Shown one piece after another: positions 3,025 to 25,925 of a stretch of 64,000 bases of DNA. Each line of letters opens with the position of its first letter. Position 1 is the stretch's first letter. Source of the stretch: an uncultured Planctomycetota bacterium (GTDB lineage: Bacteria > Planctomycetota > B143-G9); NCBI GenBank assembly GCA_964571525.1, contig CAZNBY010000001.1, positions 4,647-68,646 of the forward strand. The letters are read 5' to 3'. Under the pieces are notes generated by a model that saw only the letters and a list, made by a program, of their open reading frames with translations, ran no database searches and was not told the DNA's origin. The translations under genes were made by a program, and so were the position numbers.

Positions 3025-3052
3025 TTGCATAACCTGATTTCGGTGATATGAT
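3025..3052 (+). promoter_or_regulatory. sigma70-like promoter of the redox operon
   Basis: TTGCAT-N16-TATGAT with extended -10 TG; RBS GGAGG at 3075-3079. Confidence 0.5.
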
Positions 3053-3083
3053 ACAAATGTCACGATTAACTTGCGGAGGTAAC

Positions 3084-3614
3084 ATGCCCCACAACGACTG
3101 CAAGCACGACTGGGCGATGTGCAATGTGAAAAACGGGTATCTGGTTGTGGAAGGCTGCTTCCATTGCGGACAGAGGATTTCCTTCTTCTCGCAAGAACCC
3201 GTCCCTCCTATTGATGACTATCGCGAAGGCGAACATTTCTGGAGCTTTCGCGCAGGTTATCAGGCGACAATGTTTGATTTAAAGTGCGATAAATGCATGA
3301 AGCTTGTCGCTCTGAACGATGTCGCTGCGCTTATGCTCTGCATGAGATGCGATCCCGAATGCGGAGTGAACAAGCTCTACGCCAAGCAGAAGGGGCGTGC
3401 CCCTTGGGTGTATGTCGCCCTGTGCACAAATACATCTCATCCTGATGGGGCTTGCGTAACGGATGCTGGTATCAGGGCTCTTGAGGAGTACTTCAACGCG
3501 GGCATCCGTGAACAGGGCAAGGAGATAATTGTTGCTCCATGCAGCCTTCGCGTCTCGCCCGATATGTGCCAAGGGATTGTGCTTGCCGATGTCGGACTTA
3601 CTGAACTCTATTGA
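3084..3614 (+). CDS. Cys-rich hypothetical protein (176 aa), possible metal/Fe-S binding
   Basis: Start moved to ATG 3084 (RBS GGAGG); motifs CFHC, CDKC, CMRCDPEC and further Cys; first gene of the operon. Confidence 0.8.
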   Translation: MPHNDCKHDWAMCNVKNGYLVVEGCFHCGQRISFFSQEPVPPIDDYREGEHFWSFRAGYQATMFDLKCDKCMKLVALNDVAALMLCMRCDPECGVNKLYAKQKGRAPWVYVALCTNTSHPDGACVTDAGIRALEEYFNAGIREQGKEIIVAPCSLRVSPDMCQGIVLADVGLTELY

Positions 3615-3654
3615 TAGCTATCAAATCAGCGGTCAACGCCGAAAGGAAGTAGAG

Positions 3655-3981
3655 ATGAATATCTCGCAAGTAGCAGAAAAAGCGGGTCTTAAGGTCTTTA
3701 ATAAGCTCAACGATAAGCCGGTTGATGGTGTCTATATCTCCGACATGGTTAGCGACATCATCGGCAGCAAAGAGGGCAACCTGTTGGTTACTCTGCAAAC
3801 CCATAAGAACCTCATTGCGGCGGCAAATCTCGTTGATGTATCTGCTATAGTCTTCACCCGCGGTAAGAAGCCAGCAGAGGATGTTGTCGAACTTGCCAAT
3901 AAGGCTGGCATAAGCCTGTTGGGAACAGACGACGACACTTGGACCTTCGCCAAGAAACTCTACGAAATCGGGCTTCGCTGA
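3655..3981 (+). CDS. DRTGG-domain protein
   Basis: VYISDMVSD...LLVTLQTHKNLIAAANLVDVSAIVFTRGKKP...LAN..GISLL pattern typical of hydrogenase-cluster DRTGG proteins; start at ATG 3655. Confidence 0.85.
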   Translation: MNISQVAEKAGLKVFNKLNDKPVDGVYISDMVSDIIGSKEGNLLVTLQTHKNLIAAANLVDVSAIVFTRGKKPAEDVVELANKAGISLLGTDDDTWTFAKKLYEIGLR

Positions 3982-4156
3982 TCAATTAAATGAGGTGAAG
4001 ACCGCGCTGCAAATCGCAGTGCAATAAGCGTTTCGTCAGACGAGCCTAATCCACATTCCGCGCTGAGCGGCTTTGTGGTGCGCATAAACAACCGGCGCAT
4101 GCACCATGTTTTATGGCATAGCGCCATTTATCGCGAAGAACAGCAAGGCAGGTGCT

Positions 4157-4624
4157 ATGTCTGGCGATGCGTTATCATTAGTGCTCGCGTCGTTTGCGGG
4201 AAACCGTAGCGATTTGATCCCACTCCTCCAAAAGACCCAAGAGACACTCGGTTACATTTCACAAGATGCAGTACACGCCATCGCGCGCAAGCTGAAGATA
4301 TCAGAAAACGAGATCTTCGGCGTTGCATCCTTCTACGCCCAATTCCGCTTTCACCCTCCCGGCAAGCATCACATCAAAGTCTGCACGGGCACCGCTTGCC
4401 ATGTAAAAGGCGGTGAGCAGATACTTGAGACCGTGAAACGCAAACTCGAAGTAAACCCAGGCGAGACGACCGCCGATGGCGAATACGATCTCGAACGCGT
4501 CGCCTGCCTTGGGTGCTGTGCGCTCGCGCCTGTCGTAACTTTCGACTCGAAAACCTTCAGCCAAATGTCAGTTCTCAAACTCCAGGGGTTATTGAATGAG
4601 TATTCAGACAATGAAGACGCGTAG
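4157..4624 (+). CDS. nuoE: NuoE/HydC-like [2Fe-2S] subunit
   Basis: LIPLLQKTQE, GVASFY, VCTGTACH, VACLGCCALAP; start at ATG 4157. Confidence 0.92.
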   Translation: MSGDALSLVLASFAGNRSDLIPLLQKTQETLGYISQDAVHAIARKLKISENEIFGVASFYAQFRFHPPGKHHIKVCTGTACHVKGGEQILETVKRKLEVNPGETTADGEYDLERVACLGCCALAPVVTFDSKTFSQMSVLKLQGLLNEYSDNEDA

Positions 4625-6464
4625 AGACGCAGCAAAGGGCAAGTGGGATTCGATAATCTCAAACAGCGAGCCGATAATATACTTCGGCGCTGGCTCCTGC
4701 GGTCTGGCTGCAGGAGCATCGGAGACCCAGAAAGAGGTCGAAAGGTATCTATCTGAAAAGGGCGAAAACCTTCGCATAATTCAGGTGGGGTGTATCGGCC
4801 CCTGCTATCTCGAACCCCTTATGGACATTCAAGTGCCCGGTAAGCCGCGCGTCAGCTTTGGCAATGTGATGCCCGAACATGTCACAAAAATACTTGATTC
4901 GGCACTTAGCGGCGACTTCAAGCGGTATCACCTTGCAGGCCATCTCGGCGACGGGGATATTCCCAATGTGCCTAAGTTCTTCGAACTGCCGATGCTGAAG
5001 CCTCAGGTTCGCAATGTGCTTCGCAACTGCGGCATTATTGACCCAGACGAGATTGACCACTATATTGCTCGCGACGGATACTTGGCGATAGAGAAGTGCT
5101 TGACACTGAATTGGCAAGATGTGATGGATACAGTCAAGCGCTCAGGGCTTAGAGGACGAGGCGGCGCGGGTTTTCCCACATGGCGCAAGTGGACTTTCTG
5201 CCGCGAGGCTCCCGGTGATAAGAAATATCTTATATGCAATGCTGACGAGGGCGACCCGGGCGCATTTATGAACCGTTCGGTTATTGAGGGCGATCCACAT
5301 GCCGTTTTAGAGGGCATGCTTATAGCTGCATACGCGATCGGCGCAAGCGAAGGTTATGTCTATATTCGCGCTGAATACCCGCTTGCAATTAAACGGTTGA
5401 AAAGAGCGATTGGGCAGATGCGCGAATATGGTCTTCTTGGCGAGAACATATTGAACTCGGGCTTCAGCTTCGATATCAAGATAAAGGAGGGCGCGGGCGC
5501 GTTCGTATGCGGTGAGGAGACCGCGCTGATCGCCTCAATTGAGGGCAAACGGGGCATGCCCCGCACCAGACCACCGTTTCCAGCTATTGAGGGGCTTTGG
5601 GGCAAGCCGACCATAATCAACAATGTCGAAACGCTTGCCAACCTGCCGAATATTCTACGCAACGGAGCCGAATGGTTTTCAGCTTGGGGTACAGCGACAA
5701 GCAAGGGCACAAAGACCTTTTCGCTTGTCGGTAAGGTGCGAAGAACGGGCTTGATTGAAGTGCCGCTCGGAATAACGCTTCGAGAGGTCATCTTCGATAT
5801 CGGCGGCGGGACAGTGAAACCATTCAAAGCGGTACAGAGCGGAGGCCCTTCAGGAGGCTGCCTTTCCGACGAGTTTCTCGATATACCGATTGATTACGAA
5901 AACCTCGCCGCGGCTGGCTCTATAATGGGGTCAGGCGGGCTTATTGTCGTTGATTCCGACACCTGCATTGTTGACATGGCGAAGTACTTTCTCAATTTCA
6001 CGCAGCAGGAATCATGCGGCAAATGCGTTCCTTGCCGAGTAGGCACTCGCCATCTGGTTGATATTCTCGATTTGATTTGCAAGGGCAAGGCCGAAGTCGG
6101 CGATATAGATAAGCTGCATAACCTCGCCACAACAATTCAGGCAGGCGCTCTTTGCGCACTGGGTGGAACTGCGCCAAATCCTGTGCTTTCCACTCTGAAG
6201 TACTTCCGCGCAGAATACCTGCAGCATATACGCGAAAAACGATGTTCTGCAGCCGTTTGCCGCGACCTTGTGATATACCGCATCATACCCAACCGTTGCA
6301 CCGGATGCCAAAGATGTGTGTCGGTCTGCCCTACTGGAGCAATAACCGGCCCCCGTTCAGAGGTGCATAATCTTAACCAAGAGCTTTGCATAAAGTGCCG
6401 TTCGTGTTACGAAATTTGCAGGTTCGACGCAATAGCCGGCGACGCTATCGTTATCGAATCTTAG
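4596..6464 (+). CDS. nuoF: NuoF/HydB-like flavin NAD(H)-binding subunit, long bifurcating type
   Basis: N-terminal Trx-like [2Fe-2S], GLRGRGGAGF, NADEGDPGAFM, CGEETAL, GGPSGG, ESCGKCVPCR, H..EKRC.AAVC, two C-terminal [4Fe-4S] motifs; alternative start 4611. Confidence 0.93.
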   Translation: MSIQTMKTRRDAAKGKWDSIISNSEPIIYFGAGSCGLAAGASETQKEVERYLSEKGENLRIIQVGCIGPCYLEPLMDIQVPGKPRVSFGNVMPEHVTKILDSALSGDFKRYHLAGHLGDGDIPNVPKFFELPMLKPQVRNVLRNCGIIDPDEIDHYIARDGYLAIEKCLTLNWQDVMDTVKRSGLRGRGGAGFPTWRKWTFCREAPGDKKYLICNADEGDPGAFMNRSVIEGDPHAVLEGMLIAAYAIGASEGYVYIRAEYPLAIKRLKRAIGQMREYGLLGENILNSGFSFDIKIKEGAGAFVCGEETALIASIEGKRGMPRTRPPFPAIEGLWGKPTIINNVETLANLPNILRNGAEWFSAWGTATSKGTKTFSLVGKVRRTGLIEVPLGITLREVIFDIGGGTVKPFKAVQSGGPSGGCLSDEFLDIPIDYENLAAAGSIMGSGGLIVVDSDTCIVDMAKYFLNFTQQESCGKCVPCRVGTRHLVDILDLICKGKAEVGDIDKLHNLATTIQAGALCALGGTAPNPVLSTLKYFRAEYLQHIREKRCSAAVCRDLVIYRIIPNRCTGCQRCVSVCPTGAITGPRSEVHNLNQELCIKCRSCYEICRFDAIAGDAIVIES

Positions 6465-6488
6465 CATAAACAATCAGCGGAGTCTATC

Positions 6489-8999
6489 GTGGCGCTTACA
6501 CAACCAAAAATGTTAAAGATGCTGATCAACCACCATCCGGTTGATTTTCCCGAAGGAGTAACCGTGCTTCGAGCAGCGGAGTTGAACGGAATCTACATCC
6601 CCTCGCTGTGCTCCCATAAAGACTTATCCCCCTTCGGCTCATGCAGAATGTGCATGGTCGAGATAGAGGGCATGAGGGGATACCCACTCGCCTGCGATAC
6701 GCGTGCGCAGGAGGGTATGAAGGTGCTGACGGATACGGTAAGGCTTCGCGAATTGCGAAAGCAGATACTCCAACTCATTCTAAGCGAGCACCCATCAAGC
6801 TGCCTAATATGCGACGAGAAAGATGAATGCAAGGACTATCAGGGGACGATTAGAAAGACAGGCATCTCGACTGGTTGCAGATATTGCCCTAACGACATGC
6901 AATGTGAACTCCAAGACCTTGTTGAGCATGTCGGCGTTACACAAATGGACTACCCCGTTTACTATCACGGCTACGAACCTGAGATCGAGGACCCCTTCTA
7001 CGATCGCGATTACAACATTTGCATACTTTGCGGGCGCTGTGTGCGAATGTGTCAGGAGGTTCGCGGCGCGTCTGTCTTGGCGTTCACCTACCGCGGCAGA
7101 AAGGCTAAGATCGGCCCAGCTTTTGGCCGCAATCATGTAGAGGCGGGTTGCGAATTCTGCGGAGCCTGTGTTGATATATGTCCAACTGGTGCATTGGCAG
7201 ACAAAGTTTCGAAATGGGACGGAAAGCCCGACAGTTATGAGATATCAACCTGCCCATTCTGCGCCATCGGATGCAATCTCGAAGTAATGCGCAAGAACGG
7301 CAGACTCTCAAGCGTGAAAGCCAATCTCGATCCGATAGTGAACGATGGGCAGTTGTGCGTAAAGGGGCGCTTCTGCTTACCCGAGATAACGCACCACTTC
7401 ACTCGCGCGCGAAAGCCAATGATGAAGAAAGGCGCATATTTCCGAGAGGTTGATTGGGAAGAGGCGCTTAATGCAGCGGTGGAGCATTTGAAAGATGTGG
7501 ATGTATCTAAGTTCCTCCTGTCTGTCTCACCCGATCTCACTAATGAGAGCCTTTTCGCTGCGCAGAAATTTGTGCGCGAAGCAATGCGCTCGAATTCTAT
7601 TGACTCGACCGGCAGATTTTCTCTTACGGGCGGGCTTGATCTTTGGCGCAAGCTGTTCTCACTTCCTATTTCCATACATGGAATCGGCAACAGCGATACT
7701 ATAATCGCGCTATCGCTCGACACGCGTTTCGCTTACTCCACCGTTGGCGTTGAGATACGCCATGCACTTAAGCGAGGGGCGCGTTTGATCACAATAGACC
7801 CGCGCGACAGCAATCTTGCAAGCTATACGAATTGCAGTCTTAGACCATCTGCCGGAACCGAGGGCGCTGTAATTGCAGCTCTTGCAGATGCCATCTCCGG
7901 AAAAGAACTCGACATTACAGGCCTTTGCAAGCTATCCGGCATCGAAGCTACGATGTTAAAATCGGCAATCGCCATCGCACAAGGCGCAGACGATCTTGCC
8001 GTTATACTCGGCACACAGATATTCCATTACACGCATACATCACATCTTGGTCGCGCTATTGCCATGCTCGCGGATAGACCTAAGACCCTCTTCGTTCCTC
8101 TGTACACCGGCACAAACACGCGAGGAGCTTTCGAATTGGGTGTCTTTTCAGAATTCCTTCCAGGTCCAACAGCCTCGAATGGCGGGGGAAACCACATTCA
8201 CGACCTTTATAAGGCCGTAAACGGGCTTGATCTTCTGTATCTTGTCGGAGAAGCTCCATTTAACAGAAGGCCTAATGCGAAGTACATAATATCGCAAGAT
8301 ATCTACCCCCCGCCATTCGAGGTTGATCTGTTTCTGCCTGCAGCGAGCTTTGCCGAGGCGAAAGGCACGCTGACAAATATCGAGGGACGATTACAGCGCA
8401 ACATACAGATAGAGAATCTTCCCGACGGTGCACGCACAGGTTTTTCACGCCCCGACTGGTGGATCCTTGCAAAACTTGCGCAAAGACTTGGTAGCAATGC
8501 ACTTCGTTATGAAAGCACTGACGATGTTCACGCTGATATATCGTCAACAATTCCCGGATATCCGATGCATCCTGATCGTGAGGCAAGGCGCTTAAAACCA
8601 TCCTCCTACACCCCTCCCTCTCATTCCCAACCGGTGCCCGTAACTACATACAAACTTGTAATACAGCCCGGCTATTTCAGCCACAGAAGCGTTGATATGT
8701 CGGCAAAGGTGGAAGGTCTTGGCGTTCTGGCGCTCGAAGAAGGTCTGCAGATGAACTCCGAAGACCTGAAGAAGCTCGGCGGCTCTTCAGGTTCAAAGGT
8801 GAAGATTAGCACAGCAAGTGGTATCTGCGCGACTGTGATTGCCAAATCCGACCCGTCAATTCCAAGGGGATGCGTCTATTTCACCAGACCCTCGGCGTTT
8901 GGAGGGCTTGAGCATAGAGCTGACATCGCGCCCCTTTACGCAATCCACGAAAATCCATCGCCGATAGAAGTCTCGCTTGCCCCAAACAACGGTAAATAG
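6489..8999 (+). CDS. NuoG/FdhA-like Fe-S subunit with a non-catalytic molybdopterin-oxidoreductase fold
   Basis: [2Fe-2S], His-ligated [4Fe-4S], 2x[4Fe-4S], CPFCAIGC...C cluster; the Fdh DCCARV(U/C)H position reads DSTGRFSL; no H-cluster motifs. Confidence 0.85.
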   Translation: MALTQPKMLKMLINHHPVDFPEGVTVLRAAELNGIYIPSLCSHKDLSPFGSCRMCMVEIEGMRGYPLACDTRAQEGMKVLTDTVRLRELRKQILQLILSEHPSSCLICDEKDECKDYQGTIRKTGISTGCRYCPNDMQCELQDLVEHVGVTQMDYPVYYHGYEPEIEDPFYDRDYNICILCGRCVRMCQEVRGASVLAFTYRGRKAKIGPAFGRNHVEAGCEFCGACVDICPTGALADKVSKWDGKPDSYEISTCPFCAIGCNLEVMRKNGRLSSVKANLDPIVNDGQLCVKGRFCLPEITHHFTRARKPMMKKGAYFREVDWEEALNAAVEHLKDVDVSKFLLSVSPDLTNESLFAAQKFVREAMRSNSIDSTGRFSLTGGLDLWRKLFSLPISIHGIGNSDTIIALSLDTRFAYSTVGVEIRHALKRGARLITIDPRDSNLASYTNCSLRPSAGTEGAVIAALADAISGKELDITGLCKLSGIEATMLKSAIAIAQGADDLAVILGTQIFHYTHTSHLGRAIAMLADRPKTLFVPLYTGTNTRGAFELGVFSEFLPGPTASNGGGNHIHDLYKAVNGLDLLYLVGEAPFNRRPNAKYIISQDIYPPPFEVDLFLPAASFAEAKGTLTNIEGRLQRNIQIENLPDGARTGFSRPDWWILAKLAQRLGSNALRYESTDDVHADISSTIPGYPMHPDREARRLKPSSYTPPSHSQPVPVTTYKLVIQPGYFSHRSVDMSAKVEGLGVLALEEGLQMNSEDLKKLGGSSGSKVKISTASGICATVIAKSDPSIPRGCVYFTRPSAFGGLEHRADIAPLYAIHENPSPIEVSLAPNNGK

Positions 9000-9012
9000 A
9001 CGGGGAGGGAAA

Positions 9013-9840
9013 ATGTACAAGGTTATTGAACGAAAAATGATTGTCCCCAACCTGCACGAGCTTACTATCGAGGCTCCCGATGTTGCTTCTTCTGTAAAAC
9101 CCGGCAACTTCGTGATCGTTCGACCTGATGAACATGGCGAGCGTGTGCCGTTGTCTGTCGCAGACTGGAATAGCGATGCTGGCACTGTTACCTCTATCTT
9201 CATGCAGGTCGGCGCGTCAACCGCAAAGTTGGCACGATTGAAGGCCGGTGGCTTCATCCCCACCTATGCGGGACCGCTTGGCAAGGAGACCAAGATTGAC
9301 AGCTACGGCACGGTCGTATGTGTCGGTGGGTGCTACGGTATCGGCAGCATCTACCCTGTCGCCCGTGCGTTGAAGGATGCCGGCAACAAAGTCATCACTG
9401 TGATAGAGGCAAGAAGCAAGTTTCTGTTGTATTGGCAGGACAAATTCAAGGCGGTCTCAGACGATCTGATTCTGATCACGCGCGACGGCACCGCGGGGCG
9501 AAAAGGCCATGTCAAAGCGCTTCCCGAGTTGCTGAACAGCCGCAGCATCGTTCCAGACCTTATTATCGTCAACGGCTGCACTTTTCAGATGATGTCGGTT
9601 TCGCAGATTACAAAGCCGTTCGGTTGGAAGACTATCGTCAATATGAACCCGATTATGATTGATGGCACCGGCATGTGCGGAGTTTGCAGATTATCGGTCG
9701 CCGGTCAGACGAAGTTCGCTTGCGTTGACGGACCAGATTTCGACGGCCACGCGGTTGACTGGGATGAGTTCCTCGCGCGCAGAAAAAGCTATGTACCCGA
9801 GGAGGTTGAGCCTCTTCGCCGAAGCGGTTGTAGGTGCTGA
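9013..9840 (+). CDS. nfnA: NfnA/SudB-type ferredoxin-NADP reductase small subunit
   Basis: PGNFVIVR...GERVPLSVAD, GPLG, GGCYG, NPIMIDGTGMCGVCR...FACVDGPDFDG; RBS GGGAGG before ATG 9013. Confidence 0.92.
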   Translation: MYKVIERKMIVPNLHELTIEAPDVASSVKPGNFVIVRPDEHGERVPLSVADWNSDAGTVTSIFMQVGASTAKLARLKAGGFIPTYAGPLGKETKIDSYGTVVCVGGCYGIGSIYPVARALKDAGNKVITVIEARSKFLLYWQDKFKAVSDDLILITRDGTAGRKGHVKALPELLNSRSIVPDLIIVNGCTFQMMSVSQITKPFGWKTIVNMNPIMIDGTGMCGVCRLSVAGQTKFACVDGPDFDGHAVDWDEFLARRKSYVPEEVEPLRRSGCRC

Positions 9841-9882
9841 AGAGCATGATGAAGGTAACACCCAGACCACAGGAGTTCGTTT

Positions 9883-11292
9883 GTGAGCAATGAAGGTAAG
9901 AATGAAAAAGGCCGTCGGCCTATGCCGAAACAGCTCGAGCACGAGCGAATAAAGAACTTCGACGAGGTGGCTCTTGGCTACACCGAGGAGCTTGCGCGGC
10001 AGGAAGCGGCGCGCTGTCTAAGCTGTAAGAAGGCATTCTGCTCCGAGGGCTGCCCAGTGGGCATTGACATACCGGCATTCATCAAGTGCATCAAGGAGGG
10101 GCGCTTTGGTGACGGAGTCCGCACCATAAAGGCAACCAACGCCCTGCCTGCGATCTGCGGCCGCGTGTGCCCCCAAGAGGAACAGTGTGAAAAGACATGC
10201 ATTTTGGGCAAAAAGGGCGAACCAGTCGCCATTGGGCGCCTCGAACGCTTTCTTGCCGATAGAGAGGCTGCAGAGGGCAAGATAGAAAAACCACCCATTG
10301 CATTCCCAACAGGCCATAAGGTGGCAGTTGTTGGCGCAGGTCCCGCCGGAATCACTGTTGCGAACGATCTCTGCTTGCTTGGACACGATGTCACGATATT
10401 CGAAGCACTGCACGAACCCGGTGGCGTATTGACCTACGGCATACCCGAATTCCGCTTGCCAAAGGCAATTGTTAAGCGTGAGGTAGATTATATCAGATCG
10501 CTTGGAGCAACGCTGAAGCTCGATTACATAGTTGGAAAGACACGAACCGTTGACTCTTTGCTTGCAGAATACGATGCCATGTTCATCGCCTCCGGCGCGG
10601 GTCTCCCATGGTTTCTTGGTGTGGATGGCGAGAACTACAACGGCGTTTACAGTGCGAATGAGTATCTTACACGCGTGAATCTTATGAAGGGCTTTCTTTT
10701 CCCCGATTACGATACACCCATCAAACGGCCATCTGTGGTCTGCGTGGTGGGCGGCGGCAATGTCGCGATGGACAGCGCACGGACAGCGATAAGGCTTGGC
10801 GCGGACGAGGTTCATATAGTCTATCGCCGAAGCAAGAACGAGCTGCCCGCCCGCCTTGAGGAGGTTGAGAACGCTGAGGAGGAGGGAGTCATCTTCGACC
10901 TGCTGACACTTCCCACAAGGGTTGTTGGCGACAAACTGGGTTGGGTTACAGGGCTTGAGTGCCTAAAGATGGAGTTGGGTGAACCCGATGAATCGGGAAG
11001 GCGCAAGCCTATTCCTGTTGAAGGCTCTGACTTTGTGATGAAGGCAGATGCGGTGGTCGTGGCGATTGGCAACAGCCCGAACCCATTGATACCACTCACC
11101 ACACCCGGCCTTGAGATTGGGCGCAAGGGCAACATTGTTACTAACGAACTCGGACGCACATCGCGGCACAATGTGTGGGCTGCGGGCGATGTTGTCACAG
11201 GCGCGGCAACAGTGATAAGCGCGATGGGCGCGGCTCGCATCGCCGCAAAATCAATGCACGATTATCTTATGAACCTACCAACGAACAAGTGA
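9883..11292 (+). CDS. nfnB: NfnB/SudA (GltD-like) large subunit
   Basis: EAARCLSCKKAFCSEGCPV, CGRVCPQEEQCE, GAGPAG, YGIPEFRLP, GGGNVAMD, YRRS, AGDVVTG. Confidence 0.93.
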   Translation: MSNEGKNEKGRRPMPKQLEHERIKNFDEVALGYTEELARQEAARCLSCKKAFCSEGCPVGIDIPAFIKCIKEGRFGDGVRTIKATNALPAICGRVCPQEEQCEKTCILGKKGEPVAIGRLERFLADREAAEGKIEKPPIAFPTGHKVAVVGAGPAGITVANDLCLLGHDVTIFEALHEPGGVLTYGIPEFRLPKAIVKREVDYIRSLGATLKLDYIVGKTRTVDSLLAEYDAMFIASGAGLPWFLGVDGENYNGVYSANEYLTRVNLMKGFLFPDYDTPIKRPSVVCVVGGGNVAMDSARTAIRLGADEVHIVYRRSKNELPARLEEVENAEEEGVIFDLLTLPTRVVGDKLGWVTGLECLKMELGEPDESGRRKPIPVEGSDFVMKADAVVVAIGNSPNPLIPLTTPGLEIGRKGNIVTNELGRTSRHNVWAAGDVVTGAATVISAMGAARIAAKSMHDYLMNLPTNK

Positions 11293-11303
11293 GCAAAGAT
11301 AAG

Positions 11304-11648
11304 ATGCATCTGAGCGAAATTGTCGTATTGCTTGACTGCGAAGTGCTTTGCGGGACAGAAAAACTCGACATTGAAATTACCGCCGTAGTCGCATCTGATG
11401 GAATGAGCGAGATATTGGCCTTTGCTCGTTGCGGAGAGCTTATGATTACAGGTCTGACGAATATACAGTCAATTCGAACAGCCGATATTGCCGGAGTCAG
11501 CGCAGTCCTTTATTGCCGTGGAAAAGTGCCCGCAGAAAATGTTGTGGAGCACGCAAAGCTGAAGGGAATACCAGTTCTGATATCTAAGCTGGGAATGTTC
11601 GAAATCTGCGGCAAGCTCTATGTTGCGGGTCTGAAGGGGGTGTCCTGA
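11304..11648 (+). CDS. DRTGG-domain protein
   Basis: ASDGMSEIL...MITGLTNIQSIRTADIAGVSAVLYCRGK; start at ATG 11304. Confidence 0.85.
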   Translation: MHLSEIVVLLDCEVLCGTEKLDIEITAVVASDGMSEILAFARCGELMITGLTNIQSIRTADIAGVSAVLYCRGKVPAENVVEHAKLKGIPVLISKLGMFEICGKLYVAGLKGVS

Positions 11649-12085
11649 TGCCGGTCGAGCTTCTCCGCCAAGAATTCACTGTGCAGGGACGCAACTTCGA
11701 CAAGGCGGGCGAGGTATCGAGCGAGATAAAGGTCATACTCAAAGGGCTTGGCATAGACGGCGAAATAATCAGGCGGGTCGTTGTCGTCTCTTTCGAAGCC
11801 GAGATGAATGTCACGATGTATGCTACGCGTGGCATAATATCTTTTGTGCTAACTGATGAAAGCATCGAGTTGACGATCAAAGATGAGGGACCGGGCATAC
11901 CGGATATCGAGCTTGCGATGCAGGAGGGCTATTCGACCGCTTCTGATGAAATGCGCGAAATGGGTTTCGGCTTCGGTATGGGGCTTCCCAATATGAAGAA
12001 GAACTCGGACATTTTTCGCATCGAGTCAACTGTCAATCAAGGCACAACCGTTTACTCCATAATAGGGCATAACGCAAGTGCTTAG
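11648..12085 (+). CDS. RsbT/anti-sigma-like HATPase_c Ser/Thr kinase
   Basis: N-box EAEMNV, G1 DEGPGI, G2 GFGFGMGLPN; coupled to the preceding stop. Confidence 0.88.
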   Translation: MPVELLRQEFTVQGRNFDKAGEVSSEIKVILKGLGIDGEIIRRVVVVSFEAEMNVTMYATRGIISFVLTDESIELTIKDEGPGIPDIELAMQEGYSTASDEMREMGFGFGMGLPNMKKNSDIFRIESTVNQGTTVYSIIGHNASA

Positions 12086-13388
12086 CCTAAAACACGGTTT
12101 TAAGATAAACACTACACTATGCAACGGATGCATGTCATGTATGAGGGCATGCCTGACCGAAGCACTGAGAATACGAAAAGGGAAGGCCGTTTTGATTCCC
12201 GAAAAGTGCATAGACTGCGGTATGTGCCTTCGCGTCTGCCCTGTCGGTGCGATCGTCGCAGCAACGCTCGATACTGCATATCTGAGCGGATTCAAGCTGA
12301 AGGTTGCTCTGCCCTCTGCTGTCCTTTACTCGCAATTTCCACAGTGTGACACGCCAGCAAGCATAAATCGTGCTTTAAAGCTCTGCGGATTCGATGAGGT
12401 GTGGGATCTTTCAACTGAAATAGAGCTTGTCAATCGTGCAATTCGCGATTGCCTGCAGAACTGGAAGGGGACATATCCACTTATCTCAAGCTCTTGCCCG
12501 GTGATAGTCCGCTTGCTTCAGGTCGCCTATCCCACAATGGTCGGGCAGATATTGCCGATCGAAGTCCCACGCGAACTTGCGGGGCGCGCCCTGAAAAAAC
12601 ACTATTCAGAAAAGTATGGCATTTCAGAGGACGACATCGCTGCAATCTACATCACCCCCTGCCAAGCCAAGACAATCTCAATATTTAAACCCGCCGAGCA
12701 AGTTAAGAGCATCCTTGACGGAGCTATTGGAATTTCTGAGTTGTATAACAGGCTCTTGTACACGATGAGGGAAATGGAGGAGATGAATCCAGACGATAAA
12801 TGCGATATCGGATCGGATCTGCTGCTAAGTTGGGCTACACCAGAGGGACAGGCGTCGAATCTATCACGCCATCGCTATCTTCAGATAACCGGTCTGCCAA
12901 ATGTGATACGAGTTTTCGACGATATCGAAAAGGGCAAGCTGAGGAACATTGACTTTCTTGAATGCTACGCCTGTCGCGGCGGTTGCATTGGTGGTAACCT
13001 GACAGTTGATAATGTCTATGTCGCCCGAGGAAAGCTGCTTCATTTGATGTCGCAGCGACGCGAGCCCTCACAGAAGTTTAAGGACGAGGTTGAAAGGCGC
13101 TATCAGACCGAAGATTTTTCGCTAAAAGCACCAGTCAAGCCGCGTGCGCAGACGCCTGACGGCGCCGGCCTTCTTGAGCGGGTAAAACGCCGCAAAAAGG
13201 CTGAAGAGGTATTCAGCATTCTTCCCGGCCTCAACTGCGGGCTGTGTGGCGCGCCCAACTGCCGTGCACACGCTGAGGATGTCTCAGCGGGCGAATCCTC
13301 TGCCGATCACTGCGTAATACTCTCAAAAGACCGCATTGACTACCTTCGCAGCATATATCTAAAGAGGAAAAACGCCGATACGGAGTGA
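12078..13388 (+). CDS. group D-like (putatively sensory) [FeFe]-hydrogenase, HydS-like
   Basis: N-terminal 2x[4Fe-4S]; H-domain motifs SSSCPV, ITPCQAK, ECYACRGGCIGG; C-terminal PGLNCGLCGAPNC Fe-S domain. Confidence 0.85.
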   Translation: MLSLKHGFKINTTLCNGCMSCMRACLTEALRIRKGKAVLIPEKCIDCGMCLRVCPVGAIVAATLDTAYLSGFKLKVALPSAVLYSQFPQCDTPASINRALKLCGFDEVWDLSTEIELVNRAIRDCLQNWKGTYPLISSSCPVIVRLLQVAYPTMVGQILPIEVPRELAGRALKKHYSEKYGISEDDIAAIYITPCQAKTISIFKPAEQVKSILDGAIGISELYNRLLYTMREMEEMNPDDKCDIGSDLLLSWATPEGQASNLSRHRYLQITGLPNVIRVFDDIEKGKLRNIDFLECYACRGGCIGGNLTVDNVYVARGKLLHLMSQRREPSQKFKDEVERRYQTEDFSLKAPVKPRAQTPDGAGLLERVKRRKKAEEVFSILPGLNCGLCGAPNCRAHAEDVSAGESSADHCVILSKDRIDYLRSIYLKRKNADTE

Positions 13389-13393
13389 CGGGG

Positions 13394-14917
13394 TTATTTT
13401 CCCCCCGCACACCATTTCGACCATGCTGGGATGAGGGCTCGGAGACTCGTGTCTTTCGAGCTTTCAGGATGCGGCGAGCATAACACCACACGCCCCTTTC
13501 CAAACGGTGCCCGTATCATCGCGTCTGTTCCCGGCATCACTCCGGCAGGCGCCCCATTTTCGGCAAATTCACCCCGATAAATGCCCAACACCTCGTATTT
13601 CGGCAAATCGCCTTCCTTGCGCGGCACAAGTAACGGCCCCTGACCGTAATATACATTAACCAACCCCGCAGCCCTTCCGATTAGTGATGCACCTGCCTTT
13701 GAAAGCTCAATCTCAACTGTTCCACTGCCACGCGCCCAATGCGCCGAGTCCTTCACATCAGCCCGTATTATCCCAAGTGACCATGAATAATAGGCCGTTC
13801 CAAGATACGCGCCAGCGCAGATGCCTATGTAACCACCCCCGTTCTTGACGAACTCGACAACCCGCTCACGACCCTCTTTGGTAAGAGCCGTCGCAATCGA
13901 AGAACCACTGCCCCCGGGGAATACAACCACATCGAACTGCGCAAGACCGCCATAATATACGGTTGCTGCCGCGATGCGCCTTATTTGCGCCCCTGTTACG
14001 CCCTCATAGCACCTTTCTACTGGAAATGCGCTGCCTGCTCCTGCGCCTGTATCATCATAAATCGCAACCCGATGTTCGTTGGCTTTCTTTTGTTCAAAGA
14101 AGAAAGTATCAACTGGGCACGGTACCATGCCCAGTTCAACAAGCAGCAGATTGGCCAGCATAGCGCACCGTCTTTGCGCCGCGCCCGCATGTTCAGGCGC
14201 ACTGGTTACCCTCAGAGCCTTACACTTAAGCACCTTTCGCGCAGCCCCCGCAGGCGACCCGTTCAAAGCATCGTTCAACTGTACAAATCCATGCCTTTCT
14301 ATACCAGAGGGCATATCGGCATTAGTTTGTGCGATAAGTTGCGGGAGCAGTTTCTCTTCATCGCCTCCCGGCCAATATGAGACCGTGTTGCCAAAACTCG
14401 GACGCAAGTCTGTTGAGTTCTGAAGATAGTCGCGCGATGATCTAAACTCGATAACCCAGTTTGGCTTGGCATCGCAGATAGTATGCCAGATTGCAGCCAC
14501 AATGGGATGAGGTTCTTTGGCAGATTCGATGCCCGAAAAAGCTGTTGCCAGAGAAAAGGCGCTTTTACCATCCACACCTGCTACGGTGCGCACACCGCTA
14601 ATGCATCCCGCCTCATTTGCGCGCGGTATCACGGTCAGCTTGCCCTTCTCTACGCGCCATTGACTTATCTGCTGCGCGACAGCCCGTGTTACAGGTTCAT
14701 CCCCATTCAACCCACCGATCAACACGATGGAAGGACCCTCTTTACCGCTATTGTATGTGTATGCGACCGTCGAAAATGGTGTATCCGGTGCAATTGTGGT
14801 GCTTACCCAAACCGGAACAACATCCGCAGGAGCAGTCTTCTGCTCTGCAAAGCAAAGCCCAAAGACACTTATAAGCGACATGCAAAGAGCTATGTGTACG
14901 ATAATGCGAATCTTCAT
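13394..14917 (-). CDS. secreted protein: M14/AstE-like domain plus BPL_N (class I GATase-like) domain
   Basis: Signal peptide from ATG 14917; GGLNGDEP and VIPRAN (M14-like); FPGGSG, GICAGAY, SPHPE (GATase-like). Confidence 0.75.
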   Translation of the reverse strand: MKIRIIVHIALCMSLISVFGLCFAEQKTAPADVVPVWVSTTIAPDTPFSTVAYTYNSGKEGPSIVLIGGLNGDEPVTRAVAQQISQWRVEKGKLTVIPRANEAGCISGVRTVAGVDGKSAFSLATAFSGIESAKEPHPIVAAIWHTICDAKPNWVIEFRSSRDYLQNSTDLRPSFGNTVSYWPGGDEEKLLPQLIAQTNADMPSGIERHGFVQLNDALNGSPAGAARKVLKCKALRVTSAPEHAGAAQRRCAMLANLLLVELGMVPCPVDTFFFEQKKANEHRVAIYDDTGAGAGSAFPVERCYEGVTGAQIRRIAAATVYYGGLAQFDVVVFPGGSGSSIATALTKEGRERVVEFVKNGGGYIGICAGAYLGTAYYSWSLGIIRADVKDSAHWARGSGTVEIELSKAGASLIGRAAGLVNVYYGQGPLLVPRKEGDLPKYEVLGIYRGEFAENGAPAGVMPGTDAMIRAPFGKGRVVLCSPHPESSKDTSLRALIPAWSKWCAGGK

Positions 14918-15534
14918 TATCGTCGTGGCTTTCTCGTTGGCACGGCTTGCGTCGCCTTGCACGCTTCGATCTTACCGAGCACTTTAGGGATATCTGTGTG
15001 GCAACTATCCAACCAATCCTTGTCGTTTTCAGCATTCCACTTTTCAAGAATCATTGCCCGTTTCTTTGCATCTTCCAGGTGATTTCTCAGCATGCCCCAT
15101 ATGTTCTTATCATTTTTATCATAATCAGGCAATTTATCTTTTAGTTTCTGACGCATTTTCCAGCGATCATTTTTTATCTCTTTATCGCTGAAGTGCAGAT
15201 AGAACCATAATTCCATACACGGATTAGACACGCAAAGCATTATCTTCTTTTCCTTCCTGCATGCCTCATATACACGAATAATTGAATCATGCTCGATACC
15301 ATCACATACAATAATTGCCTTATCTATCCTCTGATCCTTACTTTTTATTTCATCCTGCGCTTTTTGGTACAGGGTTTTTGGGTCAGGTCCTGCAGTTACA
15401 ATCGACACAGTTTGCCTTGAAATGTGAAGTTCTTTCCTATATCCCTCAAGATAGTTACATTCCGATGCCCCTTCACAAAGAATCAAAAGAGATAGCTCAG
15501 ATGGAATCCGTGCGTTTTTCCCTTTTCGCGTCAC
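14917..15534 (-). CDS. rloB: RloB family protein (TOPRIM-like)
   Basis: LILCEGASECNYL, IIVCDG, SNPCMELWFYLHF, A.KRA..L. Confidence 0.88.
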   Translation of the reverse strand: MTRKGKNARIPSELSLLILCEGASECNYLEGYRKELHISRQTVSIVTAGPDPKTLYQKAQDEIKSKDQRIDKAIIVCDGIEHDSIIRVYEACRKEKKIMLCVSNPCMELWFYLHFSDKEIKNDRWKMRQKLKDKLPDYDKNDKNIWGMLRNHLEDAKKRAMILEKWNAENDKDWLDSCHTDIPKVLGKIEACKATQAVPTRKPRR

Positions 15535-16853
15535 TTTCCCTCCTCCGTGTCGCCAGTAAGAACGCTCTCATCTGGGAGATCAATGACGGGGATGCCCCCG
15601 TACTTGCCGACGAAGTACCGGTCGCGTATGTTGTGCCTTTGGGGGTCAATGCCATCAACATCCCATAGTGAGTATATGCTCGATGCTCCGTTCACCTTTT
15701 GTACGATATTTATCTGGTCCCGCCTCAGCAGGTCCATGTCGAGCAGTTCAAGATCGTGGGTTGTGAATATAAGCTGCGCTCCCTTCTTGTTGAGCTTTTC
15801 GCTTCTAAAACACTCGATTATCATCGCGGTCAGATGTGTGTGAAAGCTCGTATCAATCTCATCAACAACAAGGCATCGCCCGTTATTAACTACATCAATC
15901 AAAGGACCAACAAGAGATAAGAAAGCCCGAGTCCCCTCCGATTCATCTTCATAATTTATCGTTCTTGAGCATTGATTATTGGCTTTGTCAATCGCCTTAT
16001 GGCTCATCTTTGCCATTACTCGCTCAGTATTTCGCAGCTTTTCCGACAATTCGTTCGGTATTCTCTCTTTACCTCTCACCGAACTTAAATACTCGTAATA
16101 GTTTCCTTCATATGTCGAGATATCTTCAATGTCAATATCTGCAGCTTTTAAGAAGGAAATTACAGCGTTCTTAAAATTGTTGTTCCTATGAATATTATAT
16201 AGAGTGTAATGCTCCAATACTGAAAGCTCGCTAGGAAACTTGAAACTGTCACGGAACCATGACAAAGCTTTTTTTGAACTCTCCATGTTAAAGCTACTCG
16301 TTACAGCAAGAAAGGATGAGTTTGGTCGCGTCATTGCCTCCAATGCTTTTAACGCTTTTTCATGATTTTTCCCGTATTGATATACATATTTATTGCTTTC
16401 TTCGAGGCTCCGCCTATAAATTAGATCACTTACTCTACCTCTTTTACATTTTAAACATTCGTACGATATATACCTGGTGGTTGCATGCACTTCATAGTCA
16501 AACAGCATGTCATCAACTACATATTTTACCGAAAATTTCGATGGCCTCTCCATCATTGCATCATCCCACCTAAAAGGCTGTATGCTCTCGGGGAGCAAAT
16601 TCTCGTCTGTTAATGAGAAAATAGCAATCTTCCAGATCGCTTTGAGTGCTCGCATCATATTCGACTTGCCAGCGGCATTTGGGCCGATTATGCCCGCGTA
16701 TTTAAGCAAACCTGCCTTGCCAGCAGCGGGGTTGCCTTTATACACATTGTGAGGATGCATCTTCGCACCAGCCCTATCCTTGGCTGGCACCATCGAAAGC
16801 ACTGCCTCGTCGCGAAACGACCGAAAGTTAGAGACCTTGAACTCTACAAGCAT
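15531..16853 (-). CDS. RloA-like ABC-type (AAA_21) ATPase
   Basis: FKVSNFRSF, Walker A GPNAAGKSN, signature ESEGT, Walker B DEIDTSFH, QLIFTTHD; start at 16853 after GGAGG. Confidence 0.9.
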   Translation of the reverse strand: MLVEFKVSNFRSFRDEAVLSMVPAKDRAGAKMHPHNVYKGNPAAGKAGLLKYAGIIGPNAAGKSNMMRALKAIWKIAIFSLTDENLLPESIQPFRWDDAMMERPSKFSVKYVVDDMLFDYEVHATTRYISYECLKCKRGRVSDLIYRRSLEESNKYVYQYGKNHEKALKALEAMTRPNSSFLAVTSSFNMESSKKALSWFRDSFKFPSELSVLEHYTLYNIHRNNNFKNAVISFLKAADIDIEDISTYEGNYYEYLSSVRGKERIPNELSEKLRNTERVMAKMSHKAIDKANNQCSRTINYEDESEGTRAFLSLVGPLIDVVNNGRCLVVDEIDTSFHTHLTAMIIECFRSEKLNKKGAQLIFTTHDLELLDMDLLRRDQINIVQKVNGASSIYSLWDVDGIDPQRHNIRDRYFVGKYGGIPVIDLPDESVLTGDTEEGK

Positions 16854-16880
16854 AATGCCCTCCACATGCGTGTAAATGGC

Positions 16881-24651: not shown

Positions 24652-25431
24652 TCAGAAGGTCGCTGTAAGTGAAATGGTTGTCCAGAAGTTGTCGTCTTTC
24701 TCCATTATCTTTCTGTGATCAGAATCCAATAGCGTGGAATAGTGGAAGGCAACTGTCAGAGCCCAGTTGTCGCTTATCTGAAAGGGAAGCGTTGCATGAA
24801 GCGTGAAATCTGTTAGCGCGGATTCTTTAAGGCCGAAGTAATATTCGTTGTCCTTGGCAGTGCCGTACCCAATGCTTGCGGATAGCCCAAGACTCACATT
24901 CATGCCGTTATCAAATGTATAAAGGTCGAATGAGTGGCTTGCCGCGAGGGAAATCCAGGTGCCTTTGGCCTCGTCAAGATCTTGATATACAAGAATTTTA
25001 GGCGACAGAAGTGTGTCATAACCAGCTACTGCATATAGCTCAATCGTGTTGTTAAGGCCGGTCGTCGGGTATTCGTAGAGCGCAAGGCCAACCGAGAAGC
25101 TGAACTTCTCTATTGCAAAAGAGTAGTCGAGCGTGTAGTCAATTTCAGTAATATCGCCTGAAGGCTTGTCGTTGTCAGGATACGAGTTGTAATCGCTGGT
25201 TTCGATGCTTGCCCAGACGATAAGCGAAAGCCCTTTCCATGATCCAGTTACTGACGGCCATATAACAGGGTCATCATTGAAATTCAGGCCGCGCCAGATG
25301 TATTTGCTCGAATAGGTAAGGTCAACCGTTACGCTCCATTCCTTATCGTCGGCGACAGCCACGCGCGGCGCGATGAACGATAAAAGCACTAAGGCAAACA
25401 GAAATACTGATACAAAAAGCGGATTCCTCAT
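24652..25431 (-). CDS. outer-membrane beta-barrel, TorF/TIGR02001-like putative porin
   Basis: Signal peptide from ATG 25431 (RBS GGAGG), SKYIWRG, amphipathic strands, terminal Phe. Confidence 0.75.
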   Translation of the reverse strand: MRNPLFVSVFLFALVLLSFIAPRVAVADDKEWSVTVDLTYSSKYIWRGLNFNDDPVIWPSVTGSWKGLSLIVWASIETSDYNSYPDNDKPSGDITEIDYTLDYSFAIEKFSFSVGLALYEYPTTGLNNTIELYAVAGYDTLLSPKILVYQDLDEAKGTWISLAASHSFDLYTFDNGMNVSLGLSASIGYGTAKDNEYYFGLKESALTDFTLHATLPFQISDNWALTVAFHYSTLLDSDHRKIMEKDDNFWTTISLTATF

Positions 25432-25925
25432 TTTAACCTCCGAAAAGTTAGTGTTCAGCCGGTGTTGGGCGAAGGTGTTCGCGCACCGGAGGGGTTTGCC
25501 CAATTGCCCTAATACGCAGTTGAGCCATCTTTCGACGGCGAAGTTTTGCGCATTAGAATCGTATCTGAACGGCAAAATGAAGAGTTCAGCGGGAGTATCC
25601 GCTGATTTCCGCAGTCCATTTTTGTTGAGGAGCAACCGCTTAGAAAGCGCCGGTAGGTTCGATAAGAGGGAGGTCAACCGAAACATGAGACCGACGCGAG
25701 GCGACTTTGCCCCAACCGACGGCCTGTGCGCGCAGCCTGCACGCACCGCCGTCATGGACGGTGGATACTCATGTTTTGCCGGTTTTCCTATAGATGAATG
25801 CGTTGCCTTTGCGAAGCATCATATACCCGAATTGTAGATGTTTTGCCCGTTGTGCAAGAAAATACGCAAATGAATTTGTTGTTCGCAAGGAACCGCGCGA
25901 AGTAGTTGGTCTTCCCTTGCCTTGC

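Follow-up and report, generated by a model that had tools for sequence, protein, structure and literature searches.

Can a bifurcating enzyme of the Bfu family and a complete NfnAB transhydrogenase be parts of one and the same complex? The question is raised by a 64,000-nucleotide stretch of DNA from an uncultured Planctomycetota bacterium (NCBI GenBank assembly GCA_964571525.1, contig CAZNBY010000001.1, positions 4,647 to 68,646 of the forward strand; hereafter the window), in which nuoE-, nuoF- and nuoG-like genes, here called bfuC, bfuB and bfuA, are directly followed by nfnA and nfnB. Ribosomal protein S1 of this metagenomic contig has its nearest matches, at 73-77% identity, in metagenome-assembled genomes of Planctomycetota. 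A sequence-only reading of this DNA had described the five genes as one tight operon, and this is borne out: all five core genes are confirmed on the plus strand at the coordinates in Table 1 and are tightly packed, with bfuA and nfnA separated by 13 nt and a strong ribosome-binding site (GGGAGG) 5 nt upstream of nfnA. The interval that it gave, 4157-11292, holds for the identities of the genes but not for their beginning, as position 4157 is an internal Met of bfuC, which starts at 4106. The operon itself extends over 3048-13388 as ten co-directional, closely packed genes on the plus strand, with five accessory genes flanking the core at 3048-3981 and 11304-13388, and the gene after them runs the other way. 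Internal promoter and terminator matches in the gene cluster did not rise above shuffled expectation and are uninformative on operon structure. From gene order, protein fusions and conserved residues we infer that the five proteins quite probably form one complex.

A survey of the five-gene synteny was one of the checks that the sequence-only reading had proposed, and it covered 11 genome loci, 80 metagenome loci and several targeted loci, annotated with the window proteins as queries. Neighbours were counted by gene order, with at least 700 bp of downstream sequence required for nfnA and at least 2.4 kb for the nfnA-nfnB pair. A genome-contig scan with the single BfuA gave 11 loci, 9 of them in a clade at ~40% identity; the alignment-based metagenome scan was far richer, and at least 560 metagenome loci (>560) matched the family. 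The gene nfnA lies directly after bfuA in 76/76 loci, and nfnA-nfnB follow bfuA in 60/60. This adjacency of bfuA and nfnA spans at least 10 bacterial phyla and two archaeal groups, with loci from Planctomycetota, including Phycisphaerales (a complete genome), Zixibacteria, Ignavibacteria, Desulfomonilaceae, Myxococcales and others, and metagenome-assembled genomes (MAGs) named WOR-3, Krumholzibacteria and Aminicenantes are among the matches listed for close BfuA relatives. Distant relatives in a Thermoplasmatales genome and in Desulfobacteraceae have the same five genes in the same order.

Four arrangements of the cluster were found, written here with Y for the Cys-rich gene, D and d for two DRTGG genes, C, B and A for bfuC, bfuB and bfuA, S and L for nfnA and nfnB, K for a kinase-like ATPase and H for a HydA-like gene: YD-CBA-SL-dKH (the window), YDKH-CBA-SL, YD-A-SL-dKH-CB, and CBA-SL alone. 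In none of the four is A-S-L interrupted, even where bfuCB sits at the far end of the cluster. All-versus-all clustering of the other open reading frames (ORFs) in 92 loci, which sought a hidden partner, found nothing common to more than 8 loci, and no hydrogenase, formate dehydrogenase (Fdh), Nuo, Ehr or other oxidoreductase partner is conserved with the cluster in this set. A hydrogenase, Fdh or Nuo partner encoded elsewhere, which the sequence-only reading had named as what would speak against its proposal, finds no support in the gene context.

In some lineages BfuA and NfnA are joined in a single polypeptide. A profile search of 1.8 billion representatives returned three BfuA relatives of ~1020-1080 aa which, by Pfam and by sequence, consist of a complete BfuA including the duplicated motif described below, a short linker and a complete NfnA. 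Among 121 relatives listed for one of these fusions (P0363), 82 carry the NfnA [2Fe-2S] motif at their C-terminus; the 82 fusion clusters fall into three length classes, and the named sources are mostly Asgard archaea (Lokiarchaeota, Promethearchaeota, Helarchaeota, Thorarchaeota), with some Dehalococcoidia. Four distinct contexts, in six loci, were read, and each shows bfuC-bfuB-[bfuA::nfnA]-nfnB with stops and starts that overlap. Given that the 82 clusters come from independent sources, an artefact of read-through or assembly is unlikely. Together with the known fusion of BfuA to an NfnB-like domain in the transhydrogenases Stn and NfnABC, the BfuA::NfnA fusions are the strongest available sequence-level evidence that BfuA, NfnA and NfnB belong to one complex. 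The single assembly of a HydABC-like trimer and NfnAB that the sequence-only reading had put forward is thus supported by the invariant adjacency, by the fusions and by the lack of any other conserved partner in the 92 loci.

The subunits themselves were compared with characterized enzymes. By its sequence, BfuB bears every Bfu signature and is nearest to the BfuBs of NfnABC-type enzymes. Its Pfam architecture comprises an N-terminal extension, Complex1_51K, SLBB, NADH_4Fe-4S and a C-terminal 2x[4Fe-4S] domain, and the bifurcating features reported earlier for this subunit (GDPGAFM, GGPSG, extra Fe-S domains and a C...H..C..C site) could all be located: GDPGAFM at aa 219-225 (within DEGDPGAFM), GAGAFVCGEE at 299-308, GGPSG at 416-420 and H544-x5-C550-x4-C555. 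The same motifs are markers that separate bifurcating BfuB from the non-bifurcating NuoF, FdsB and HoxF (Schut 2022, PMC9304861, Supplementary Figures 9, 10; PMC12018979). The best solved relatives are NfnB of Caldicellulosiruptor saccharolyticus (Csac) NfnABC (754 bits, aligned full-length over residues 29-613), Thermococcus sibiricus NfnB (746), Acetomicrobium mobile NiFe-BfuB (732), StnB (713) and HydB (696), as against only 399 bits for the non-bifurcating Thermus Nqo1. The marks by which Schut 2022 recognizes the Bfu family are present in the sequences, namely the BfuB domains, the FMN/NADH, GGPSG and B2-site residues, and a BfuC and a BfuA homologue in the cluster. Identity as a complex I N-module (NuoEFG) was rejected on the bifurcating type of BfuB and on the lack of nuo genes (nuoA-D, nuoH-N) among the Pfam-scanned larger ORFs of the window, several ORFs of at least 120 aa lying outside that scan; the same scan gave no hydrogenase or Fdh that could serve as a partner, no nuo gene is conserved in the 92 loci, and the sequence-only reading had also seen no membrane nuo genes. 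As a separate observation, BfuB in two loci of a bacterial short-fusion lineage (L099 and L100, 2730-5852) is fused to a second GltD/NfnB-like module, giving a protein of 1040 aa with Complex1_51K, NADH_4Fe-4S, Fer4_20 and Pyr_redox_2 domains beside BfuA::NfnA and a separate NfnB.

BfuA is predicted to hold a [2Fe-2S] cluster, a His-ligated [4Fe-4S] cluster, an extra Cys triad, two further [4Fe-4S] clusters, a MopB-type [4Fe-4S] cluster and a molybdopterin-like domain devoid of cofactor. In the Pfam scan the 836-aa protein has no Fe_hyd_lg_C (H-cluster) domain and no Pyr_redox or Fer4_20 domain, and the pterin-binding domain IV (Molydop_binding) scores 22.8 bits, under the Pfam cut-off of 26.8. 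Cys386-His387 of Rhodobacter capsulatus FdsA align with Ser378-Leu379 of BfuA, and the earlier statement that the third subunit has neither an H-cluster nor a Mo/W ligand is therefore correct. Among 127 BfuA relatives, the Mo-ligand column is mostly Glu or Ser, with Cys not among the five commonest residues, and the catalytic-His column is Leu in 118/127. The MopB-like half is the least conserved part of the protein, fast-evolving and truncated in the short fusions: between two BfuA clades it is merely 31-33% identical, compared with 56-60% for the Fe-S half. Judged by these residues, BfuA would be unable to provide a substrate site of its own, and it is the same kind of inactive FdhF-like remnant as that in StnC (PMC10482914). 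A Foldseek search with the AlphaFold2 monomer model, which is confident in the MopB-like part alone, with a predicted local distance difference test score below 50 across the Fe-S region, places FdsA-type Fdh alpha subunits on top, then NuoG; these are generic fold matches.

The feature that is specific to this BfuA family is the second Cys triad, C130-x2-C133-x5-C139, invariant in 127/127 relatives, in all of which the ligands for the [2Fe-2S], the His-ligated [4Fe-4S], the two ferredoxin-type [4Fe-4S] and the MopB-type [4Fe-4S] clusters are likewise conserved. In sequence it repeats, in tandem, the Cx2Cx5C portion of the motif for the His-ligated cluster; the loop between the copies is nearly invariant, and both copies align with the single motif of A. 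mobile BfuA. The duplicated motif was seen in 120/120 close relatives and in 122/150 representatives at 50% identity, as well as in the fusion proteins. Its position is the insertion point of the GltD/NfnB-like domain in StnC (residues 102-565) and in Csac NfnA. We read the triad as a putative extra metal or Fe-S site at the position that in Stn-type enzymes bears the NADPH module.

NfnA matches Pyrococcus furiosus NfnS (271 bits) and Thermotoga maritima NfnA (227 bits) and retains the Asp/Cys3 [2Fe-2S] motif DGTGMCGVCR...FAC in addition to its FAD/NAD domain. NfnB matches T. maritima NfnB over its whole length (554 bits, ~60% identity by eye), against 260-307 bits for the GltD domains of StnC (260) and NfnABC, and it has two [4Fe-4S] clusters and the FAD/NADPH folds; the Arg beside N5 of the FAD (in EFRLP) and the region CPQEEQCE...IGRLERF are both preserved. 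By its position, the Glu of IGRLE121RF would be the non-Cys ligand of the FAD-proximal cluster. It is found in the window NfnB and in 60/60 cluster NfnBs caught by the motif pattern, where StnC has a strictly conserved Lys (K170) as ligand on that cluster; the equivalence of Glu121 and StnC Lys170 rests on the alignment offset and the IGxLxxF motif rather than on a printed StnC alignment. The gene order, nfnA-nfnB, is also the usual one. What departs from a free-standing heterodimer with no HydBC-type partner is the context, in that the genes always come after bfuCBA and NfnA is fused to BfuA in 82 clusters. By its residues, NfnAB looks fully functional, and NfnB-type rather than StnC-type.

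These components suggest a mechanism in which one soluble complex would use an intact NfnAB as the third-substrate module of a Bfu core and, through a series of two bifurcating centres, carry out transhydrogenation between NADH and NADPH that depends on ferredoxin; taken as a whole, we consider the case for it evenly balanced. Where other Bfu enzymes carry a hydrogenase, Fdh or GltD module, this assembly would have NfnAB, making it a Type 3-like 'NfnAB-Bfu' in Schut's terms. BfuBC would be the FMN/Fe-S bifurcation site, binding NAD(H) and ferredoxin, BfuA a catalytically dead FdsA/NuoG-like Fe-S wire, and NfnB the subunit that binds NADP(H) at a bifurcating-type FAD. On this speculative electron path, the high-potential electron would pass from NfnB through NfnA to NAD(H), while the low-potential branch would run through the two [4Fe-4S] clusters of NfnB, the ferredoxin-reducing port of free NfnAB, into BfuA rather than to free ferredoxin. 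Electrons would enter BfuA at the extra Cys3 site and/or the MopB-type cluster and continue to the BfuBC site, which would serve a second NAD(H) and ferredoxin.

True tandem bifurcation, with the NfnB FAD and the BfuBC FMN/Fe-S 'flavobicluster' wired in series as a 'geared' transhydrogenase with 4:3:2 NADPH:NADH:ferredoxin (Fd), is a tentative proposal and the more doubtful part of this scheme. If both centres bifurcate, the speculative stoichiometry would be 4 NADPH + 3 NAD+ + 2 Fdox ↔ 4 NADP+ + 3 NADH + 2 Fdred, compared with 2:1:2 for NfnAB or Stn. Pool potentials are given as ~-280 mV for NADH, ~-380 mV for NADPH and ~-500 mV for Fd (Schut 2022, PMC9304861). By our own arithmetic the NADPH-oxidising direction would be downhill and the ferredoxin electron could reach ~-680 mV; in the NADPH-forming direction the ferredoxin cost per NADPH would be halved, but just for a less reduced NADPH pool. 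Were tandem bifurcation to operate, NADPH would be made at half the ferredoxin cost of Nfn or Stn, or NADPH would drive electrons far below the usual ferredoxin potential, in an enzyme with a wide distribution among sediment bacteria and, fused and encoded by four genes, among Asgard archaea.

Several points weigh against this scheme. Operon linkage and fusion establish functional coupling and no particular electron path, and, with NfnA as the fusion partner, contact may be made through the NfnA side instead of the distal cluster of NfnB. The AlphaFold2 monomer, being unreliable in the Fe-S region, is no guide to the fourth ligand or to the exposure of the extra Cys site. At the pool potentials above, the 3:2:4 stoichiometry would be unfavourable toward NADPH formation, and so the physiological direction or the stoichiometry may differ. 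Finally, NfnA and NfnB are of canonical length with no obvious docking extension in their sequences, so that operation as a free NfnAB is conceivable.

A simpler wiring, to which we assign a low probability, is that the complex forms as a split Stn, with NfnB a non-bifurcating NADPH input to BfuA and NfnA structural or auxiliary, or an alternative partner; the net reaction would then be the ordinary 2 NADPH + NAD+ + 2 Fdox. StnABC and NfnABC demonstrate that a GltD/NfnB-like module can feed a Bfu core, its FAD not necessarily bifurcating, and such a wiring would fit both the kinship of BfuB with NfnABC-type BfuBs and the extra Cys triad at the StnC insertion point. It fits poorly with NfnB, which scores 554 bits to true NfnB and 260 to the StnC domain and has the NfnB-type Glu, not the StnC Lys, in 60/60 copies. 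Moreover, the retention of NfnA in 76/76 loci and its fusion to BfuA make a dispensable role for NfnA unlikely. The evidence leans to supercomplex wiring, because NfnA is always kept, even fused, and NfnB holds the NfnB-type Glu ligand.

Somewhat less probable again is that the operon encodes two independent enzymes, a free NfnAB and an orphan BfuABC that docks on an 11-subunit Nuo, the membrane-bound, hydrogenase-related Ehr complex, a [NiFe] hydrogenase or another oxidoreductase encoded elsewhere. NfnAB is canonical in size and residues, Nuo-Bfu complexes exist, and BfuA is similar to its counterpart in A. mobile NiFe-Bfu, an A subunit on which separate catalytic subunits dock. Matheus Carnevali 2019 described what is apparently the same cluster, a putative fdhA with nuoE-/nuoF-like genes near Nfn in Margulisbacteria and Saganbacteria, and read it as FDH(-Ehr) plus a separate Nfn in the vicinity. 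Such independence is hard to square with the BfuA::NfnA fusions and with an A-S-L adjacency that persists where bfuCB has been relocated, and no membrane or catalytic partner is conserved in the 92 loci or present among the scanned window ORFs. Scores of 182-251 bits also bring BfuA nearer to soluble FdsA and the A-subunits of Bfu enzymes than to NuoG of complex I, at 121-169 bits.

The presence of a HydA-like gene at 12078-13388 raises the further possibility, which we regard as very improbable, that its product is the catalytic head of BfuABC in an H2-dependent NAD(P)/Fd enzyme. The gene is co-conserved in most clusters, separate H-cluster subunits are known in FdhFeFe-Bfu, and the protein keeps two N-terminal [4Fe-4S] motifs and all four H-cluster Cys ligands (C140, C195, C299 and C303, conserved). 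On the other hand, it is of the sensory group D (M2e) type: it has no proton-relay Cys (SSSCP) and no PAS domain, ends in a C-terminal Cx2Cx4Cx16C (C387/390/395/412), and is flanked by a kinase-like ATPase. The putative sensory hydrogenase TamHydS of Thermoanaerobacter mathranii, also of group D (M2e), has a matching description, with a kinase-like ATPase as its neighbour and a place upstream of a bifurcating HydABC; proteins of this type adjoin complete HydABC operons and turn over slowly (PMC8163306). The HydS-like protein is missing where the locus consists of CBA-SL only and where the cluster occurs in Asgard archaea, Thermoplasmatales or Desulfobacteraceae, and its absence from several arrangements and from archaeal versions marks this module as regulatory or accessory, not as a missing head. 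A split [FeFe] hydrogenase was rejected on these two grounds, the sensory type of the protein and its frequent absence.

Least credible of all is an NAD(P)-linked or confurcating formate dehydrogenase (FdhA-HydBC), which automatic annotation (the JGI name 'formate dehydrogenase alpha subunit'), the FdsA-type best matches in sequence and fold and some genome papers, such as the Imachi preprint with its 'FdhA-HydBC' in Asgard archaea, would suggest, and which was rejected because the active site is dead, the Mo-ligand Cys/Sec being replaced by Ser (mostly Glu/Ser in the family) and the catalytic His by Leu, with a Molydop_binding domain under its cut-off in a MopB-like part that is the least conserved and is truncated in short fusions.

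By its sequences the cluster belongs to the Bfu family and to NfnAB, and comparison with known systems places it outside Stn/NfnABC, Fdh-Bfu, FeFe-Bfu and the complex I N-module. Like StnABC (Sporomusa ovata, 8OH5) and NfnABC (Csac, T. sibiricus; 9BOV, 9N5U), it has a BfuBC-type core (BfuB 713-754 bits), a BfuA-like wire with a dead FdhF-like domain, an NfnB/GltD-type NADP(H)-FAD module with two [4Fe-4S] clusters and presumably the same three substrates. In those enzymes the module is inserted in a BfuA-like single polypeptide of ~960-1180 aa, whereas here NfnB is separate and canonical with a Glu ligand, the invariant extra Cys triad occupies the place of insertion, and NfnA is always present, sometimes fused to BfuA; with no inserted GltD domain, with NfnA, and with Glu in 60/60 instead of Lys, the cluster falls outside Type 1 Bfu (Stn/NfnABC). 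That Stn and NfnABC lack NfnA, as the sequence-only reading had it, is correct and is stated for Stn in its structure paper, which reports Stn to be without an NfnA homologue and Nfn without a HydBC homologue (PMC10482914). NfnAB/NfnSL (T. maritima 4YLF, P. furiosus 5JCA) are close homologues of equal length with all cofactor motifs and the same nfnA-nfnB order, and they differ in being free of a HydBC-type partner, where here nfnAB always follow bfuA; the four Nfn gene patterns of Liang 2019 include none with BfuA.

The Type 3 Bfu enzyme of A. mobile, NiFe-BfuABCSL (7T2R), likewise combines a headless wire that has a MopB-like remnant (208 bits) with separate subunits that give the third substrate site. 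Its added subunits are a hydrogenase, whereas here they are NfnAB, itself bifurcating, and its BfuA has the single rather than the duplicated motif. FdsABG (R. capsulatus 6TG9) and NuoEFG share the three-subunit ancestry, with BfuA best matching FdsA and then NuoG, but their B subunits are devoid of the extra Bfu clusters and motifs, the FdsA Cys-His site is lost here, and no nuo membrane genes are nearby. Neither Fdh-Bfu nor HydABC (FeFe-Bfu) describes the cluster: Ser378-Leu379 stand in place of Sec/Cys-His and domain IV is sub-threshold, while BfuA has no H-cluster domain and the sole protein of the cluster that does have an H-domain belongs to sensory group D. The class II benzoyl-CoA reductase (BCRII) BamBCDEFGHI of Geobacter metallireducens resembles the proposed complex in having a HydBC-type module in series with a second, unrelated flavin-based bifurcation module, and coupling of two different bifurcation modules in one complex was recently shown for it (10.64898/2026.04.10.717634). 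Its second module is HdrA-type and its product a reduced aromatic ring, whereas here the second module is Nfn-type and only pyridine nucleotides and ferredoxin would be involved.

Schut 2022 (PMC9304861) lists no NfnAB-containing Bfu type. The structure papers on Stn and NfnABC present Nfn and Bfu as alternatives, and in those on NfnABC from 2025 NfnSL and NfnABC are unrelated and exclude each other. In the Imachi preprint, 'FdhA-HydBC' and 'NfnAB' are separate entries for Asgard archaea. The literature searched (Creative Commons-licensed PubMed Central papers and bioRxiv) yielded no description of the five-gene complex or of a BfuA::NfnA fusion, in keeping with the earlier suggestion of an undescribed system; the Bfu-NfnAB assembly is widespread and apparently uncharacterised so far. 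If the complex is real, the either/or view of Nfn versus Bfu/Stn would be overturned by a complex holding both, BCRII would no longer be the single case in which bifurcation modules are coupled hierarchically, the assembly being the second, and redox-balance models would change for many uncultured anaerobes, including Asgard archaea. Booking these genes as 'FdhA-HydBC' implies formate metabolism for a subunit that has no catalytic residues (in the window family and in one fusion checked by eye).

Table 1. Features of the bfu-nfn gene cluster, with positions in the window
Feature	Position	Strand	Basis
Conserved Cys/His-rich protein, 188 aa, first gene of the cluster	3048..3614	+	no Pfam or NCBIfam match
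DRTGG-domain protein 1, accessory, probably regulatory	3589..3981	+	PF07085, E 1.6e-8
BfuC, NuoE/HydC-like thioredoxin-like [2Fe-2S] subunit	4106..4624	+	PF01257, 162 bits; NF005722, 148 bits
BfuB, NuoF/HydB-like FMN/NAD(H) subunit, bifurcating type, 622 aa	4596..6464	+	Pfam domains, solved relatives, motifs
BfuA, headless FdsA/NuoG-like Fe-S wire, 836 aa	6489..8999	+	Pfam domains, PDB relatives, Cys conservation, Foldseek
Duplicated cluster motif in BfuA, H101-x3-C-x2-C-x5-C114 ... C130-x2-C-x5-C139-EL	6789..6911	+	alignment and conservation
Degenerate formate-dehydrogenase active site in BfuA, R376-F-S378-L379 replacing R-V-C-H	7614..7625	+	alignment to R. capsulatus FdsA
NfnA (NfnS), FAD/NAD(H) subunit	9013..9840	+	PRK06222, 341 bits; solved relatives
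NfnB (NfnL), NADP(H)/FAD subunit, two [4Fe-4S], canonical bifurcating type	9883..11292	+	TIGR01316, 576 bits (above cut-off)
DRTGG-domain protein 2, accessory	11304..11648	+	PF07085; gene call in L012; conserved position
Histidine-kinase-like ATPase, SpoIIAB-like, accessory, probably regulatory	11648..12085	+	PF02518, PF13581; TIGR01925, E 3e-14
Group D (M2e)-like putative sensory [FeFe]-hydrogenase (HydS-like)	12078..13388	+	PF02906, PF04060

The accessory genes point to regulation of the complex. Homologues of the Cys/His-rich protein head the cluster wherever the upstream flank extends that far, with C37, C40, C80, C83, C105, C174 and H20 conserved in 50 copies, and the protein may be a metal-binding regulator or an assembly factor; the gene for DRTGG protein 1 always comes after it. 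The HydS-like sensor, the kinase-like ATPase and the DRTGG proteins probably tune the complex to H2 or to redox state, and since no DNA-binding protein is encoded in the gene cluster, control is possibly post-translational. A putative H2-sensing hydrogenase beside a non-hydrogenase Bfu enzyme suggests H2-responsive control of the pyridine-nucleotide balance.

Among genes outside the cluster, glutamate dehydrogenase (ELFV_dehydrog) adjoins it in three archaeal contexts (locus L098, 13111-14370; L101/L102, 10293-11543; L103, 1-361), and a glutamate-dehydrogenase-like ORF family, recognized by eye, occurs in five surveyed loci (for example L020, 8472-9881); in L098 an isocitrate dehydrogenase and a Glu_synthase-like gene are also nearby. 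The glutamate dehydrogenase neighbours hint weakly at a link with NADP(H)-dependent nitrogen or amino-acid metabolism. The core genes are irregular in two other places: each of the five is split into two or three ORFs in a delta-proteobacterial MAG (L011, 8114-14769), as pseudogenes or through assembly or sequencing frameshifts, and in L103 (4129-6004; Thermoplasmatales, CP070798.1) the place of bfuB holds just a 65-aa Fer4 gene call, maybe a frameshift or a missed gene. An independent assembly of the window sequence itself (L012, a contig from Logan SRR36073416) departs from it by single-base offsets in two spacers between genes, at ~3981-4106 and ~6464-6489, which leave the coding sequences unaffected.

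Elsewhere in the window, an Rfam scan found one tRNA at 52-124 and nothing else, and adjoining this tRNA on the minus strand (1080-2714) is a gene for a 544-aa N6/N4 DNA methylase fused to an Mrr-like or NA-iREase1 nuclease domain. An RloB-like protein and an AAA_15/AAA_21 ATPase (14917-16865, minus strand) look like a defence pair of the OLD/abortive-infection type, and a second, lone AAA_15/AAA_21 ATPase lies at 47136-48539 (minus strand). Three ORFs of 1571, 689 and 367 aa (49462-54177, 33096-35165 and 24652-25755, all on the minus strand) have no Pfam match at E <= 1e-5. Also on the minus strand, 29373-31739 encodes a type II/IV secretion ATPase (T2SSE with MshEN) to which a double zinc ribbon and, C-terminally, a response-regulator receiver domain are joined.

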